Part shown: positions 1 through 41,985 of the stretch, one piece after another
Layout of the letters: each line of letters starts with the position of its first letter
Numbering within the stretch: the stretch's first letter is position 1
DNA from: Tunavirus T1
Strand: one strand, 5' to 3'
DNA length: 48,822 nucleotides
Sequence record: MN153797.1
Notes under the pieces: model-generated
What the model was told of the DNA's origin: nothing
Seen by the model: only the letters and a program-made list of their open reading frames with translations
The model's database searches: none
Translations under genes and position numbers: made by a program

Positions 1-448
1 GTTGCATGGTGTGCAACTGTTGATGTGATTGTTTCTTAGAATGCAATGATTGTGAGAGGGGGGATCTAGTGTTACCAGGTTCGCCTGGTAGTCATCTCCA
101 TTTTTAGCAAAAAGTGCTATCGATTACGATTACGCTTGATTGCGTGTTAATCATTGTATATGATTTGCCTAAATCGCAATCGTATACAAAATTACGCCAA
201 ATTACGCCTTATAATATACATATAGATATATGTATATATATAATATATAAGTGTTTTTTTTATTTATATATATAGATACTATTATTTGTAATATGGTTGT
301 ATAGCGTGTCTTTTATGTTAATCGTTGGATGCTCTGATTATGATGCTCATGTTTATATATACAGTAGTTTTATCGGCGCATATTTATTTAGGGAAATCGA
401 TTAACACGATTAACACGATTAACCACACTTAAAATCGCCCCGCAGACC
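1..448. promoter_or_regulatory. Non-coding AT-rich control region with short direct repeats; candidate pac/ori/early promoter region
   Basis: No RBS-led ORF; cgattacg x2 (121-135), aattacgcc x2 (192-209), cgattaacac x3 (399-430), 6-bp-arm palindrome gttgca..tgcaac at 1-17, GTGTAAC-type motifs at 67-73, 473-481, 493-500. Confidence 0.45.
105..119 (-). promoter_or_regulatory. TAGCA-N5-TGCTA box, minus orientation, followed by hairpin accagg-cgaa-cctggt (71-93); no -10 at the usual offset
   Basis: ttagcaaaaagtgcta read on + strand; hairpin read directly. Confidence 0.4.
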
Positions 449-538
449 TTGACACATGCGGGTCGTCGTGTAACACTACGATTAGAGACACGGTGTTACA
501 TGTTAATCATGGTGTATATTGAAACTAAGGAGAAAGCT

Positions 539-28913: not shown

Positions 28914-29602
28914 TGTCATACGGTGCTTTTATAGATGTAAACGGAAACCCATTCATAACCCCGTTATCCACGCCATTCGCTTTATATGCGAGAGGGGAAA
29001 TTCAATCAGTAAATGTTAGTGGTTCACAGGTTGCGGAGAGATACGTTCGGATACCTACAGGTGTTCCGGTTATAGCTTTTTGCAAAACAACAAACACGCA
29101 GCAGGGGACCGCGCTTTCAGCCTTTACTTTCAGAAGCGGACCCAATGTTGGAACTGTTTATATAAGGGGGACAAATCCAGCAAAACAATCATACACGCTA
29201 ACATACTACATATTTGCCATATTTGAGCAGTCACTACCGAGATGGGGTATGGCAATATGGGATGCGACAGGAAAGCTAGTGCTGACAAATGAGACAAAAG
29301 TCCTTAGTGATTTGGTTACAATCGGCACTCCTGGATACGCTGGCGGTGGATTAAACATAGACACAACACTCAGCGGAAGCTACGCGGTTGTTCCAACTAT
29401 ACTTGGCAACTATCAAATTGTTATTGGAAGGTTGCCAACTGGGCAACCAATAATAGGAAACTCAACAGCAGGCAGTTCATGCAGGTACAACGGGAGCACA
29501 ACGAGAATAAATGCAGCAGCAACCACTGCGGCAGGTCAGATAATGAACACAGCGAATAATGGAAATATTATAACAGCAATCAAAACGGCAGCATACGACT
29601 AA
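28913..29602 (+). CDS. tail-associated hypothetical protein (possible fiber or receptor-binding accessory)
   Basis: ORF track; Gly/Thr/Asn-rich; paralogous N-terminus. Confidence 0.45.
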   Translation: MSYGAFIDVNGNPFITPLSTPFALYARGEIQSVNVSGSQVAERYVRIPTGVPVIAFCKTTNTQQGTALSAFTFRSGPNVGTVYIRGTNPAKQSYTLTYYIFAIFEQSLPRWGMAIWDATGKLVLTNETKVLSDLVTIGTPGYAGGGLNIDTTLSGSYAVVPTILGNYQIVIGRLPTGQPIIGNSTAGSSCRYNGSTTRINAAATTAAGQIMNTANNGNIITAIKTAAYD

Positions 29603-29625
29603 GCCCCTTGCGGGGCTTTTATTTT
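29603..29625. terminator. Bidirectional terminator between convergent genes
   Basis: gcccc-ttgc-ggggc with T-runs on both strands. Confidence 0.6.
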
Positions 29626-29851
29626 ATATCGAGCAATCGTGAGATTTGAAGTTTTTCTCTGATACATAGTTGAAGGAGAATGGGTATCCAGCACGCAATA
29701 CCATCTCCTTTCCGCGCATCTTAGATCCAAAAACGTAAACCGAGTACTCCGCGCCGCCTGATTCATAAATTGCCGTGCAAGTGCGCTCAGGCATCGATGA
29801 GCAACCAGTCAGGATGAATGCCGCAGCGATAACGGTGATTAACTTTTTCAT
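29624..29851 (-). CDS. cor: Cor-like small lipoprotein (candidate superinfection exclusion / receptor blocking)
   Basis: 75 aa; signal peptide MKKLITVIAAAFILTGC with lipobox LTGC; convergent with tail genes. Confidence 0.5.
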   Translation of the reverse strand: MKKLITVIAAAFILTGCSSMPERTCTAIYESGGAEYSVYVFGSKMRGKEMVLRAGYPFSFNYVSEKNFKSHDCSI

Positions 29852-30378
29852 TTGTATGTCCTCGTCGTTAGTGTGATTGCATTGTATGTCGCATTTACTT
29901 TTATTGCAATAGAGCGATTACAATTTTTTTCGTGTAACAGGCGTATATTTTTGTAACCGGAATGGGTGTTACAAAATCGCCTCCATCCGACCGCAGGGAG
30001 ATATGATAAAAACTCTATATAATATATATAGATAGATAATATTTAATTTTAGCTTTATATATATAATTATTGTTGTGTAACAGTTGTATATCGTGTAACA
30101 GGTGATTTGATTGATTCGTCAAATTTCTATCATGTATGTTCAAAATTTAATCAATCTGGATTCTATTTGTAGGTATCTCTGTATTTCTAATAAAAAGCGG
30201 TTACAAGTGTTACGCAATAGACAGCGCATAAAAATCTACTTAAGCCATTGATTCTGTTGATGCTGGTTGTAACTTGAGCAATATAGACACGCAATTACAC
30301 ACTGATTACATGTATTCGATTGACTAAACGCTGTTAATGGCTATAATGGATTCATCGTAAACGAAGGAGATAAACGCA
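29852..30378. promoter_or_regulatory. AT-rich divergent control region with repeated GTGTAACA-type motifs
   Basis: cgtgtaacag at about 29931, 30078, 30098; ggtgttaca at about 29955; gtgttacg at about 30210; poly-AT tracts 30010-30060. Confidence 0.45.
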
Positions 30379-31443
30379 ATGTTCCATGTATTCACATCAA
30401 GCCAGCTTTCTAACGACGAGTATCATAGAAACGAAGGTTGGGCGTCAGAGTATGTAAGCGGATCGAGTCTTGCAGAAATTTATCAGACCTGCCCTGCTAA
30501 CTGGAGATTCAAGAAGAACGAGACAACGAAAACTCTGGAGTTCGGTACTCAGTCGCACACCAACTTTGAGAGTCGAGATCTGTTTACTGCAACGTATGCT
30601 AGATGCCCTGCTCCGTCAGAGTTTAAGGATCTGATTACTTCGCAGGCGGCGCTGGCAGCAAAATTAAAATCATTCGGCCTGAAAGGTACATCCGGTAAGC
30701 AGTACCCGGACCTCATCAAAATGATGGTTGATTGTGGTGAAGAACTCAACGTTCAATACCTGATTGAACTGATCGCAGAAGCTGAGGCCCGTGCTGAAGG
30801 AAAACAACTTGTTGACGCGGACAAATACGACGCTTGCATGAAGATGAGAGTCATCCTTGAGCAGAATCCCGATCATGAAGCGTGCATCAACAGTGAAACG
30901 GCGCAGCGTGAGATTTCAATCTTCGGTGAGATATCCGGCGTAAAAGTTAAGGTTCGACTTGACCATCTGGACTACAAAGAGAATGTTCCAGGTCGTGTCC
31001 TGACTGGTTATGATGAGAATGGCGATCCGGTATTTGAAGACGTAATTTTCCCGGAAGCACTGATTATCACAGATTTCAAAACTACGATGAGCGCCAACCC
31101 GTTAGAGTTCCCGAGACTGGCATACAATCACGGCTATTACCTGAAGATGGCATTGCAGCATGACCTGCTACGACGCGCAATCCAGGCTGGAGCTTTTGAA
31201 GGTAACTTCCCGGAAGACATTCCGATCGTGGTTCGATTGCTTGCGCAGGAGAAAAAAGAGCCTTATATCGCACTGGCTTACCGTATGACTATGGAGCAAA
31301 TCAGGATAGGTCGTAACCAGTACATTAGCGTAGTCCACACTTACAAGGCTTGCTCTGAAATGGATGTTTGGCCTGGGTACGCTGGCGACGCAAGCGAGAT
31401 CGAACTTGAAACGCCATCATGGGTGCGTTACCAAAATAAGTAA
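30379..31443 (+). CDS. recombination exonuclease (PD-(D/E)XK, RecB/RecE-like)
   Basis: Motif IITDFKTT resembles RecB-family (I/V)xDYKT; sits upstream of Erf and SSB. Confidence 0.5.
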   Translation: MFHVFTSSQLSNDEYHRNEGWASEYVSGSSLAEIYQTCPANWRFKKNETTKTLEFGTQSHTNFESRDLFTATYARCPAPSEFKDLITSQAALAAKLKSFGLKGTSGKQYPDLIKMMVDCGEELNVQYLIELIAEAEARAEGKQLVDADKYDACMKMRVILEQNPDHEACINSETAQREISIFGEISGVKVKVRLDHLDYKENVPGRVLTGYDENGDPVFEDVIFPEALIITDFKTTMSANPLEFPRLAYNHGYYLKMALQHDLLRRAIQAGAFEGNFPEDIPIVVRLLAQEKKEPYIALAYRMTMEQIRIGRNQYISVVHTYKACSEMDVWPGYAGDASEIELETPSWVRYQNK

Positions 31444-35964: not shown

Positions 35965-36417
35965 TTAACTAAAAATGCTATTGGTCGTTCCGATATCTTC
36001 CCTCTTCACGACGCGCATAAATTTCTTGTTCTTGCATCGCTTCTCAAGGCACTTGCCGTTACCGTCAAACTTCAGGTCGAATCGCAACCATGCGGCCCTA
36101 AACCCTTTGCACCCCTGTCGGCGGTAAGCACGATGCGCAGCTTCAGCGCCTTGCCATGAAATCATATTGCGTTCTTTCCAGCCTTGCACCGTCTGATTGC
36201 TAACCTTCAGAGCCTTTGCGCAGGCCGCCGGGCCGCCGTAATATTCGATAAGGGCATCAAGTCGCGCTCGCAGTCCGGCGCGCGTTTCTTCTTTATGAAT
36301 ATAGAACCCGCAACGCTGGCGAGGCTTTTTATCTTTACCGCGCCGTGTTCCGTTGTTACCATTGATGTGACGTTTATCGATTTCACCAGTTGACTCTGCG
36401 ATACGTTGAATACTCAT
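35965..36417 (-). CDS. helix-turn-helix DNA-binding protein (candidate transcription regulator)
   Basis: HTH-like segment GGPAACAKALKVSNQTVQGWKERN; divergent from helicase promoter. Confidence 0.45.
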   Translation of the reverse strand: MSIQRIAESTGEIDKRHINGNNGTRRGKDKKPRQRCGFYIHKEETRAGLRARLDALIEYYGGPAACAKALKVSNQTVQGWKERNMISWQGAEAAHRAYRRQGCKGFRAAWLRFDLKFDGNGKCLEKRCKNKKFMRVVKREDIGTTNSIFS

Positions 36418-36430
36418 CTTGATTCCCCTA

Positions 36431-36473
36431 TAGCACTTTTTGCTAAAAACGTTTACTTTATGCCGTGTATTAT
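36431..36473 (+). promoter_or_regulatory. Box-dependent promoter: tagcactttttgcta + TATTAT (36468-36473)
   Basis: Centre to -10 = 30 bp; -10 in hairpin aacgtttac..gtaaacgtt. Confidence 0.55.
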
Positions 36474-36510
36474 AGCGTAAACGTTACAACGATTCAAAGG
36501 ATTAATAGCC

Positions 36511-38529
36511 GTGACAATGAACATTAAAAAACAGATTGCATTACTTGGCGATGACTATATAAAGAGAACTCAGGAGCGATTTACTGTTGGTGAGGTTGTT
36601 CCTTATCCGTACCAGGTTGTTGCTTATGCCGAGATCGCGAAACGCCTATCAAATTACGAGCATCCATTCTTCGTTAAAGCGTCTGTATCCGCAGGTAAGA
36701 CAATCATCTTCGCTATGGTGGCAAAGCAGTGTCAGAAAATGGGCTTAAAAATGCTTGTCCTGGCTCGTCAGGGTGAGATTGTCGATCAGGATAGCGAAGA
36801 GATCGACAACTTCGGGGTAACGAACTCCATCTTCTCAGCGTCACTTGGAATCAAGTCCTGCTACTTCCCGATCGTGGTTGGCTCAGAGGGTACTGTTGCA
36901 AATGGCCTCGACAATGAGTTAGCTGATTTCGTCCCGCATGTAATTGGGATCGACGAATGTCACCAGGTGGATTGGGAAGACCTTGCGCAAGCCATCGAGG
37001 GTAAGGAAACAATGGAACAAATGAGGGGCGAGAAAGGGAAAATTATCATGGACGGAGATATTCCCCTGATTGGTAATGATGGAAAGCCTTTGCTTGGAAC
37101 TAAGCGCAGTCAGTACACGATCGTAATCATGGAAATGATGCGGCGCTGTAAAAAGGTTCACGGTCACGATCTCAGAATATTTGGTATGACTGGATCTGAA
37201 TTTCGTGGCGTAGTTCCTATTCTGGTAGAGAATCCGAAAGCATTGGGATTCTGGCGTGAGCGAGTAACTGATATCGACACAAACTATCTGATTGAGTTCG
37301 GCTCTGTCGTTCCGACTATATTCGGATCAACAGACGGAGTTCATTACGATCTTGATAAGTTCAAGGCGTCTAGCGAGGACGGAGTGCAGGACTTTACAGA
37401 GAAAGACATGAAGGCTATGGAAGATGAGATCCTTCATGATAAATCTCTGACTCAGCGAATCATGCAAATGGTCGCCAAAAAGGCAGAAGAACGCAATGCG
37501 GTCCTGATTACATGTGCTGGTGTGCGCCACTGCAAAGATGCAGCGGCAGCACTTCCTCCGGGAAGCACCTATGCAATTATTACTGGCGACACAGACAACA
37601 AAGCGCGCAAGAAGATTCTTGACGATGTAAGGGCCGGAAAAATTAAATACACCTTTCAGGTAATGGCGCTCACTACTGGCGTTAACGTTCCAAATTGGGA
37701 TTTCAGTGTCATACTCCGCAAGATAGGATCGCTCACTCTGTTGATTCAACTTTTGGGTAGGGGTATGCGACTGCTTAAATACTGGCAGGTTGCTGAAGGA
37801 ATGGTTAAGCAGGACCATCTGGTATGGGATTTTGCAGGTACGATGGATGAGCTGGGTCAGCTTTATTTCGATCCGATACTTGAGCAGGCGCAATTCCAGA
37901 AGCGTTTTGAAAACGGCAAAGATCCGAAAACATGTCCGAAATGCGGTTGCGTAAATAGCTTCTATGCTCGACGATGCGTTAATGTCATTGATGGTGAGCG
38001 TTGCGATCATTTCTGGACTTCTCAGATTTGTGAGGACCAGGTTGACGAGCGAACCGGGAAAATCCTTGTTAAAGGATGCGGTGCAGAGAATGACGTTGTT
38101 GCGCGAGTCTGTCGTTGTTGTGATGCTTCTCTTGTCGATCCTAACCTGAAGTTATCCGGTAAGGCGTACACCAAGAATGACTGGTATGAAGTAAAGAATT
38201 TTGAGGTTACGCTAACCAAAAACCAGAAAGGCATAATATACAAATACACTCTGATTAACGACGATGGTGATGAGTTCAAGGCGTATGAAAAATTCTTCCC
38301 CGAGTCTGACTCTAAGATTTGCGGTACGCTATGGAAAACTAAAGGTGTACTTCCTCATGTGTCAGATCCTAAAATGCGCCGCTACTTTATCGGAATGAAG
38401 AACGCCATCAAGATTTTGCAATACTCACATCATATTGCTCACCCGGTGCGCGTAACTCATCGTCGCAACCAGAAGAAAGAAGATATCATCTCACGCAAAG
38501 ACTTCGGTATGGAGGATATCCCGGAATGA
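36511..38529 (+). CDS. SF2 DEAD/DEAH-type helicase with C-terminal Cys-rich zinc-finger region
   Basis: Walker A SVSAGKT, Walker B DECH; CPKCGC and CRCC clusters; GTG 36511 or ATG 36517 start. Confidence 0.7.
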   Translation: MTMNIKKQIALLGDDYIKRTQERFTVGEVVPYPYQVVAYAEIAKRLSNYEHPFFVKASVSAGKTIIFAMVAKQCQKMGLKMLVLARQGEIVDQDSEEIDNFGVTNSIFSASLGIKSCYFPIVVGSEGTVANGLDNELADFVPHVIGIDECHQVDWEDLAQAIEGKETMEQMRGEKGKIIMDGDIPLIGNDGKPLLGTKRSQYTIVIMEMMRRCKKVHGHDLRIFGMTGSEFRGVVPILVENPKALGFWRERVTDIDTNYLIEFGSVVPTIFGSTDGVHYDLDKFKASSEDGVQDFTEKDMKAMEDEILHDKSLTQRIMQMVAKKAEERNAVLITCAGVRHCKDAAAALPPGSTYAIITGDTDNKARKKILDDVRAGKIKYTFQVMALTTGVNVPNWDFSVILRKIGSLTLLIQLLGRGMRLLKYWQVAEGMVKQDHLVWDFAGTMDELGQLYFDPILEQAQFQKRFENGKDPKTCPKCGCVNSFYARRCVNVIDGERCDHFWTSQICEDQVDERTGKILVKGCGAENDVVARVCRCCDASLVDPNLKLSGKAYTKNDWYEVKNFEVTLTKNQKGIIYKYTLINDDGDEFKAYEKFFPESDSKICGTLWKTKGVLPHVSDPKMRRYFIGMKNAIKILQYSHHIAHPVRVTHRRNQKKEDIISRKDFGMEDIPE

Positions 38530-38942
38530 TTACAGACAAAGGTGATTATTTAGAATTTTACGAGAGAGACACAAGCGACACTCGAAAGGAGGATGCTCAT
38601 CAGGTGGATTGTGTATCTTGGCTGAAATACAATTTCCCTCACCTTCTATTTTGGCACACTGTCAATGAAGGTGAAAAAACAATCACATCGGCGCTCAGGG
38701 ATGAGCAGGCAGGATTACTTAAAGGCGTGTCAGACTTCGTTATCCTGATTGGTGTTAACTCACGATACCCGTTTGCAGCAATCGAACTTAAGCGGGTTAA
38801 TAAGTCAGGCAAAGGAAAGGCGTCACCAGTCAGCGACAAGCAAAGGGAATTTCTCCAAAAGGTCAGGGAGCGTGGCGGCTTCTCTGCCGTCGCATACGGA
38901 TTCGGGCAATTCAAGATCGCAATTTACGAAATGATGAAATAG
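38526..38942 (+). CDS. VRR-NUC-like nuclease domain protein
   Basis: PD-(D/E)XK-like core VSDFVIL..AAIELKR; overlaps helicase stop. Confidence 0.45.
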   Translation: MITDKGDYLEFYERDTSDTRKEDAHQVDCVSWLKYNFPHLLFWHTVNEGEKTITSALRDEQAGLLKGVSDFVILIGVNSRYPFAAIELKRVNKSGKGKASPVSDKQREFLQKVRERGGFSAVAYGFGQFKIAIYEMMK

Positions 38943-38982
38943 CACTTTTTGTTAAAACTGCCGGGATGGAATCTGGCATTAT
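38940..38982 (+). promoter_or_regulatory. Box-dependent promoter: tagcactttttgtta + TGg-CATTAT (38977-38982)
   Basis: Centre to -10 = 30 bp; box TAG = upstream stop. Confidence 0.5.
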
Positions 38983-41941: not shown

Positions 41942-41942
41942 A

Positions 41943-41985
41943 TAGCACCTTTTGTTAAAACAGTACCCGCGAAAGCGGGTATTAT
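41943..41985 (+). promoter_or_regulatory. Box-dependent promoter: tagcaccttttgtta + TATTAT (41980-41985)
   Basis: Centre to -10 = 30 bp; hairpin acccgc-gaaa-gcgggt. Confidence 0.5.

Follow-up and report, generated by a model that had tools for sequence, protein, structure and literature searches.

What does the 527-bp gap between cor and recE do in coliphage T1, a classic among phages and notorious as a contaminant of laboratories? The gap occupies positions 29852-30378 of the window, which is the whole 48,822-nt record MN153797.1, and it lies between cor (29624-29851, minus strand) and the ATG of recE (30379, plus strand), where an earlier note on this DNA had correctly placed it. That note described a non-coding, AT-rich control region with clustered repeats and proposed either a replication origin or a host-polymerase early promoter region with iterated binding sites. 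Two genome papers state that no origin was found in T1-like phages (PMC11447400, PMC7718038), and the paper on phage TLS found no iterons anywhere in the TLS genome (PMC11447400). Our literature search returned no mapped T1 origin and no described AT-rich element.

Judged from its sequence and from those of its relatives, the ~400 bp upstream of the recE promoter (P_recE) is a conserved module and not filler. Our tentative reading, to which we give a probability not much below even, is that this module may be an origin of the iteron type, joined to an early promoter, with sites for a phage protein arranged around an unwinding element. The repeat-plus-TA module, its paralogue and its family-wide conservation are apparently undescribed in the searchable literature; the 2004 T1 genome paper, which lay outside that literature, may mention the AT-rich gap.

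Repeated hexamers flank a TA-rich core

The gap contains 32.6% GC, against 45.5% for the genome, and is rich in copies of one hexamer. The earlier note had counted at least five copies of the repeat. This holds for the core TGTAAC, which is present seven times (29933+, 29952+, 29968-, 30076+, 30094+, 30200- and 30268+), and fails for the 8-mer GTGTAACA, which is present only three times (29932, 30075 and 30093), every copy as GTGTAACAG. One additional gap copy at 29966 takes the form GTGTTACA, the 7-mer TGTAACA/TGTTACA occurs four times, and the variant TGTAAT adds three more sites (29917-, 30294- and 30305-). Shuffling, proposed in the earlier note as a check on base composition, left this enrichment intact: none of 2000 dinucleotide-preserving shuffles of the gap reached the observed number of TGTAAC (7, against a mean of 0.42) or of GTGTAACA (mean 0.03). 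Across the genome, all six copies of TGTWACA and all eight copies of TATATATA are confined to the gap or to the left-end non-coding region, and each of the ten non-coding copies of TGTAAC belongs to the gap, to the left promoter or to the pir promoter spacer.

The hexamers are arranged around a TA-only tract of 60-100 bp at ~30010-30070. To its left lies a distal cluster (29917-29973) with ATTACA at 29917 (minus), TGTAAC at 29933 and 29952 (both plus) and GTTACA at 29968 (minus). To its right, the proximal tandem units at 30062-30102 (plus strand) read TTGTGTAACAG / TTGTATATCG / TGTAACAGG with a 9-bp spacing, and they are followed, across a ~100-nt spacer (30103-30199), by the inverted hexamer pair GTTACA-AGT-GTTACG at 30200-30214 (minus strand), again with a 9-bp spacing. 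The tract is therefore flanked on both sides by sites in both orientations, namely +,+,- on the left (29933, 29952, 29968) and +,+ (30076, 30094) followed by -,- (30200, 30209) on the right. A further, promoter-proximal set at 30268-30310, formed by TGTAAC at 30268 (plus) and ATTACA at 30294 and 30305 (both minus), abuts the -35 hexamer of P_recE upstream. The spacings within clusters are 9, 9, 9, 11, 16 and 19 bp, which is the clustered and helically phased arrangement that characterizes iterons. Longer repeats connect the same blocks: direct repeat D1 (30 nt, 80% identity) has one copy at 29919-29948 and the other within 30062-30102, and inverted repeat I3 pairs 30073-30088 with 30202-30217 (88% complementary).

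Nearest-neighbour stability, calculated over the whole genome, identified the DNA between these repeats as exceptional. The TA-rich core at 29998-30098, a candidate DNA-unwinding element, ranks second in instability among the genome's 100-mers (z = 5.3). Only 203-303, in the left-end region, is less stable (z = 5.9), and the third-ranked segment reaches only 3.2. The core at 29998-30098 thus supplies the adjacent low-stability AT-rich stretch that belongs to an iteron origin.

A paralogous element at the left end

Circularising the genome turns the left-end non-coding region into a second gap, with orf1 (leftward) on one side and the early genes (rightward) on the other. The same motif recurs there, as the earlier note had remarked, with GTGTAACA at 468 (the fourth copy of the genome) and TGTTACA at 494. 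What the note missed is that the repeat block upstream of recE is one of two paralogous elements. The left-end and recE-upstream gaps of T1 align in the same orientation only, with a score of 66 against 25.1 +/- 3.6 for shuffles (z = 11.5), and this same-orientation paralogy is also observed in TLS (z = 16.3) and in SRT8 (z = 25.6), where it is collinear over ~300 nt. The part shared in T1 comprises the TA tract and the first tandem units: the TA-rich core at 203-303 aligns with 30016-30096, and the proximal units at 30062-30102 are paralogous to 280-309 of the left element.

The left-end early promoter (449-500, plus strand) reads TTGACA-17-AACACT, and its -10 hexamer and the stretch at ~+15 to +22 are covered by inverted TGTAACAC / GTGTTACA arms. 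In loci L056, L058, L060, L063 and L064 these arms read TGTCAYAAT, both having changed in concert, and the recE-upstream TGTAAC is retained. The left element also has tandem repeats of its own at 121-134, 189-208 and 399-428, consisting of CGATTACGATTACG, two copies of AAATTACGCC with a 10-bp spacing, and three copies of CGATTAACA with a 10-bp spacing; the CGATTAACA set is restricted to T1 and two close relatives. At 73-90, inside the strongly conserved first 130 bases and apart from the TA core, lies the conserved, hairpin-forming TACCAGGTTCGCCTGGTA, which may have a role in packaging or termination.

The presence of a second copy near the left end of the deposited genome, and the position of the first copy next to recE-erf-ssb, would also be in line with another kind of DNA transaction site, for example an entry site for RecE/Erf or a site of concatemer processing. 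This is very unlikely to be what the elements are for, since nothing specific to sites of that kind was found, and the TA core is set apart from the conserved left-end block that is possibly packaging-related (-5 to 130).

The module is conserved among relatives

Conservation was examined at two depths. Among 14 Tunavirus sequences (~91-96% identical overall), 29997-30135 is almost invariant, whereas 29976-29996 and 30215-30262 differ freely from one sequence to the next. In the distal cluster the GTAAC cores are unchanged in these relatives and the bases flanking them are variable; the first third of the 30103-30199 spacer is invariant, as is P_recE, and the stretch of the cor promoter (29860-29912) is nearly so.

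At the family level, 46 IMG/VR loci were compared, with RecE proteins 43-99% identical to that of T1. In all 46 the 500 bp 5' of recE contain 31-36% GC, and in 45 of them the least stable 60-mer of the 6-kb locus is found 298-357 bp before the recE start. In 39 loci, a promoter of the form TTGACN-16..18-TAnAnT lies 58-68 bp before the recE ATG. The order of the module is constant throughout while the repeat word differs by lineage. The dominant word is GTTACA in Tunavirus, IME347 and ESCO41, GATTAC in SRT8, and GAACAA, AGAACA or GAAACA in most of the remaining loci, the TLS/Stevie group included. In keeping with this, the tandem units equivalent to 30062-30102 carry other words in SRT8, IME347 and TLS, and the TLS counterpart of the inverted pair at 30200-30214 reads GTGAACA-AT-GGAACA. 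In SRT8 (L052), the second element (35987-36698) holds all four genomic copies of TTGTCTAA/TTAGACAA, in place of the TGTAAT of the recE element; GCTTACATCTTATACA is common to both elements.

Because TLS, which has no cor at this position, still has the module, the block belongs to the recE side and not to cor, a point that had escaped the earlier note. The replication origin proposed there is strengthened, as a reading of the sequence, by the location of the least stable DNA between the repeats and by this family-wide layout.

The lineage-specific words also bear on whether the module is an architecture built for host factors. An AT-rich block of this kind could be an activating or silencing region for Fis, IHF or H-NS, or consist of curved or UP-like DNA, the repeats being a by-product. 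AT-rich DNA is common upstream of strong promoters. The gap contains exact consensus matches for Fis (30138-30152, within the 30103-30199 spacer) and for IHF (30241-30253, minus strand), the latter being AATCAATGGCTTA, an exact fit to WATCAANNNNTTR. Furthermore, inhibition of the recE promoter by cAMP-CRP was observed both in vivo and cell-free (PMC6737242). Nonetheless, T1, ESCO41, TLS and SRT8 are all coliphages and differ in their repeat word, a difference that a co-evolving phage protein can account for and a host factor cannot. It is the repeat cores that hold the invariant bases, and the IHF match was given low weight because its stretch varies among the relatives. No CRP consensus within 2 mismatches and no LexA consensus was found in the gap, and readings of its motifs as OmpR-like, GalR-like or LexA-like were dropped, as none gave a match. 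Host-factor architecture is therefore an unlikely explanation of the module.

The same comparison addresses whether the gap conceals a gene. AY216660 annotates, with a ribosome-binding site, a 46-amino-acid open reading frame (ORF), CPTT1_049, at 30111-30251 on the plus strand, and this frame is open and free of indels in 14 relatives. A hidden gene here, or a small regulatory RNA, would turn the repeats into expression signals. Codon positions 1/2/3 of the ORF account, however, for 8/13/12 of the variable columns, most substitutions change the amino acid, and the ORF found at the same place in SRT8 encodes an unrelated 36-amino-acid product. For an RNA, an Rfam scan of 29400-30600 (E <=10) returned chance-level hits only, none better than E = 0.5, and the folding of 30095-30265 was no better than that of shuffles on either strand (z +1.1 and +0.3). 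We consider a hidden gene or RNA extremely improbable. The evidence goes against CPTT1_049 as a gene, and it is probably not one whichever function of the module holds; the gap is probably non-coding, as had been supposed from the start.

Promoters at the edges of the gap

The promoter at the right edge of the gap is already known, and host RNA polymerase uses it without phage help. P_recE (30320-30347, plus strand) reads TTGACT-16-TATAAT, a match to 11 of 12 consensus positions, and is the early promoter of recE-erf-ssb. A gfp fusion with at most 150 bp 5' of recE is active in uninfected E. coli and also cell-free (Laganenka et al., PMC6737242), and the equivalent promoter is among only three convincing sigma-70 promoters of the TLS genome (PMC11447400). 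The suggestion of a host-polymerase early promoter region was therefore well founded, given the promoter at 30320-30347 and the activity of the reporter in the absence of phage. A leftward, sigma-70-type promoter for cor is predicted at 29909-29881 (minus strand), with the sequence TTGCAA-17-TACAAT (9/12 consensus). We are nearly certain that the gap is a control region of the early recE-erf-ssb operon and of cor; this certainty covers the promoter part alone.

The T1 record AY216660 names cor 'lysogenic conversion protein' and recE exodeoxyribonuclease VIII, and lists an Erf-type recombinase, SSB and a terminator 3' of recE. Within the gap it annotates, besides the 46-amino-acid hypothetical ORF and the ribosome-binding site, a predicted promoter just 5' of recE. 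The segment 29600-30500 matches both T1 records (AY216660 and MK213796) at 99.8%. The analysed sequence measures 48822 nt, against 48836 nt for both of these, and its coordinates are shifted relative to the record by +1 at recE and by -14 at the pir start, which indicates that ~15 bases are missing between ~30.4 and 36.4 kb.

The absence from 29852-30378 of a promoter box of the TAGCA type was confirmed by a ATAGCACNNNTTGNTAAAA scan allowing <=3 mismatches. In T1 as a whole the same scan yields 24 matches to this box, ATAGCAC-N3-TTG-N-TAAAA, against 2.2 expected, for example at 102-120 (minus), 1450-1468, 36430-36448, 38939-38957 and 41942-41960; most are oriented with the downstream gene. The Pir-activated dam promoter carries one such box. 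Loci L019, L024, L038, L048 and L049 have a full ATAGCAC box facing cor, and the T1 counterpart of it (~29895-29920) is degenerate. The TLS paper lists the 21-nt ATAGCAC...TTGnTAAAA box as an unexplained family-wide repeat (PMC11447400).

Pir and the control of early transcription

The phage regulator Pir (orf23) lowers the activity of the recE promoter and of the pir promoter (PMC6737242). The recE fragment that it represses contains the TGTAAC at 30268 and two copies of ATTACA. Pir has a P22 Cro-like helix-turn-helix (E = 4.5e-5, a match below the Pfam cut-off), the recognition helix of which carries S/T-x-Q in the GTAAY lineages and N-L-K in TLS. Its own promoter (minus strand, gap 36455-36495) reads TTGAAT-17-TATAAT, with TTGTAAC in the spacer. 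This is the only non-coding TGTAAC outside the two elements, and the chance expectation for it in the 93-bp gap is ~0.05.

Three further features of the pir promoter were observed. In the gap between pir and the helicase gene, a 9-bp inverted repeat (AACGTTTAC / GTAAACGTT) brackets the pir -10 hexamer. An ATAGCAC box adjoins the promoter and faces the helicase gene. The promoter spacer is homologous across lineages, and its central word is variable.

The module might accordingly serve transcription control and nothing else, a possibility that we rate appreciably below even. The hexamers would then be operators, most likely for Pir, that shut the early sigma-70 promoters (P_recE, P_cor and the left-end promoters) in the course of infection; the distal and proximal clusters would loop together, with the flexible TA tract as a hinge, and no origin would be present. 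This is what the repression of the recE fragment and of the pir promoter by Pir suggests, and both the singular TTGTAAC of the pir spacer and the difference in recognition helix between the GTAAY lineages and TLS point the same way. Repression would also fit two further features of the elements: the TGTAACAC arms of the left promoter, over the -10 and ~+20, occupy the position of a repressor and change together, and each copy of the element stands in a fixed orientation toward an early promoter or operon. Other features fit it poorly. Sites 270-450 bp 5' of the start and a conserved, least-stable TA tract exceed the needs of an operator array, 9-bp tandem units beside an AT tract are typical of iterons, and the hexamers are unlike the 14-18-bp palindromes that are usual for dimers of the Cro/C2 type. 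In most lineages, moreover, the pir spacer is without the recE-upstream word.

A possible origin built on the hexamers

The alternative that we favor is an origin at each element. The earlier note had spoken of iterated binding sites; the repeats are real, clustered and conserved, and the binding of a protein to them is what their sequence suggests. The TGTAAC/TGTAAT hexamers would be sites for a phage-encoded protein. The arrays flanking the TA tract would load this protein and open the tract, which would make the module an iteron-plus-unwinding-element origin, one of two in the genome. Negative supercoiling from the early promoters that read away from it could help the opening, and the promoter-proximal hexamers might double as operators for early shut-off.

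The candidates for the binding protein are Pir and the winged-helix end of CPTT1_071, an MCM-like helicase with a C-terminal winged helix; its neighbour, the winged-helix protein CPTT1_070, is a further candidate. Searches of the PDB with the sequences of the helicase and of the winged-helix protein found nothing. The percent identities of all candidate DNA-binding proteins among T1, SRT8 and TLS were non-discriminating.

Several observations weigh against an origin of this kind, in addition to the repressor-like arms and the fixed orientation given above. ESCO41, used as a natural recombinant, has T1-type GTAAC repeats, yet its MCM-like helicase is 71% identical to that of TLS and 56% to that of T1, and both the C-terminal domain of this helicase and the CPTT1_070 counterpart group with TLS, where the repeats are of the GAACA type; co-variation with the repeat word is negative for all three. 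The second element of SRT8 has the repeat word TTGTCTAA, which differs from that of the SRT8 recE element. The word in the pir spacer is the recE-upstream word in three lineages only, Tunavirus and two others (21 phages), and not in the TLS-like phages, ESCO41, L021-23/L025, L043 and L038/44, an inconsistent link to Pir. The gap contains only two matches to the DnaA box, each with one mismatch, and no GATC site. Finally, the GC skew, which the earlier note had recommended as a check, could be computed and tracks transcription and gene orientation; it is uninformative on the origin and is counted here among the points against it.

On balance, an origin would seem to explain best the TA tract and its conservation, the adjoining tandem units, the two-sided sites in two orientations and the absence of any other origin candidate, and on these sequence features we lean toward it with a confidence slightly short of even. 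What operators explain best is the constant link with early promoters, the placement of the left-promoter motifs where a repressor would sit, and the Pir experiments; their case is a reasonable one, at a probability visibly lower than even. The two readings are not exclusive, because initiators often also repress. In its fullest form, which is possible and distinctly less than an even bet, the proposal is that ~29917-30215 and ~120-310 may be the right and left origins of T1-like phages, each fused to an early host-polymerase promoter, opened by a phage protein that reads the lineage-specific hexamers, and loading the MCM-like helicase; Pir could be a Rep-like initiator at the arrays and a repressor at promoters.

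These results narrow the origin search to two short, conserved, paralogous elements, with bases to mutate and proteins to test. Should these be origins, T1-like phages would be added to the small number of phages that have a pair of iteron origins, and for a virulent coliphage an MCM-like helicase would be tied to a definite loading site. Should they be operator arrays only, they would represent the cis code of the Pir-controlled switch from early to late expression.

Comparison with known systems

The primary origin of T7 and oriF/oriG of T4 also combine a promoter with an AT-rich unwinding stretch near early replication and recombination genes. Transcription in T7 and T4 enters the AT-rich DNA from this promoter, and the transcript primes synthesis, whereas P_recE reads away from the TA tract of T1, and the T1 tract is flanked by short repeats.

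With OR/OL of lambda and P22, the T1 elements share a Cro-like protein, Pir, that represses P_recE and its own promoter, and a motif that overlaps the -10 of the left promoter. They differ in that the T1 sites are spread along 400 bp around a TA tract, and that most of them are lone hexamers or direct repeats and not long palindromes.

A likeness to iteron plasmids and to the lambda ori is found in the phased direct repeats beside an AT-rich stretch, and in the presence of the repeat word inside the promoter of a self-repressing DNA-binding regulator, Pir. The T1 repeats are, however, 6 bp long, compared with 17-22 bp in those systems, and the DnaA boxes are no better than one mismatch. Pir, with its Cro-like helix-turn-helix, is not a homologue of Rep or O, and the link to the pir promoter is missing in most lineages.

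In phage P4, ori and crr form two separated clusters of the type I iteron TGTTCACC, with a spacing of 10-11 bp and in both orientations (RefSeq annotation and sequence). GTGAACA, the word of the TLS lineage, agrees with the P4 iteron at 7 of its 8 bases, a resemblance that may be due to chance, and the zinc ribbon of the T1 primase is homologous to the N terminus of P4 alpha (E = 1e-12). The T1 word, in contrast, is TGTAAC and not TGTTCACC, the T1 DUF3987 helicase has no similarity to the helicase part of P4 alpha (best E = 0.32), and both T1 elements end in a promoter. We therefore regard P4 ori/crr as an analogy to the T1 elements, and not as a class of which they are members.

In the Staphylococcus pathogenicity islands (SaPI), iterons of five or six nucleotides flank a central AT-rich stretch on either side, and some of them are opposed (PMC9371898). 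The C-terminal winged helix that binds these iterons belongs to a helicase that is itself the initiator and loads itself, and one class of these Rep proteins is MCM-like (PMC9371898). The SaPI origin follows directly after rep, while the T1 element lies 14 kb from the helicase gene and is present in two copies, and the winged helix of the T1-type helicase does not co-vary with the repeat word. The likeness, which for T1 is one of sequence, lies in the hexamers that flank the TA tract and in an MCM-like helicase that ends in a C-terminal winged helix.

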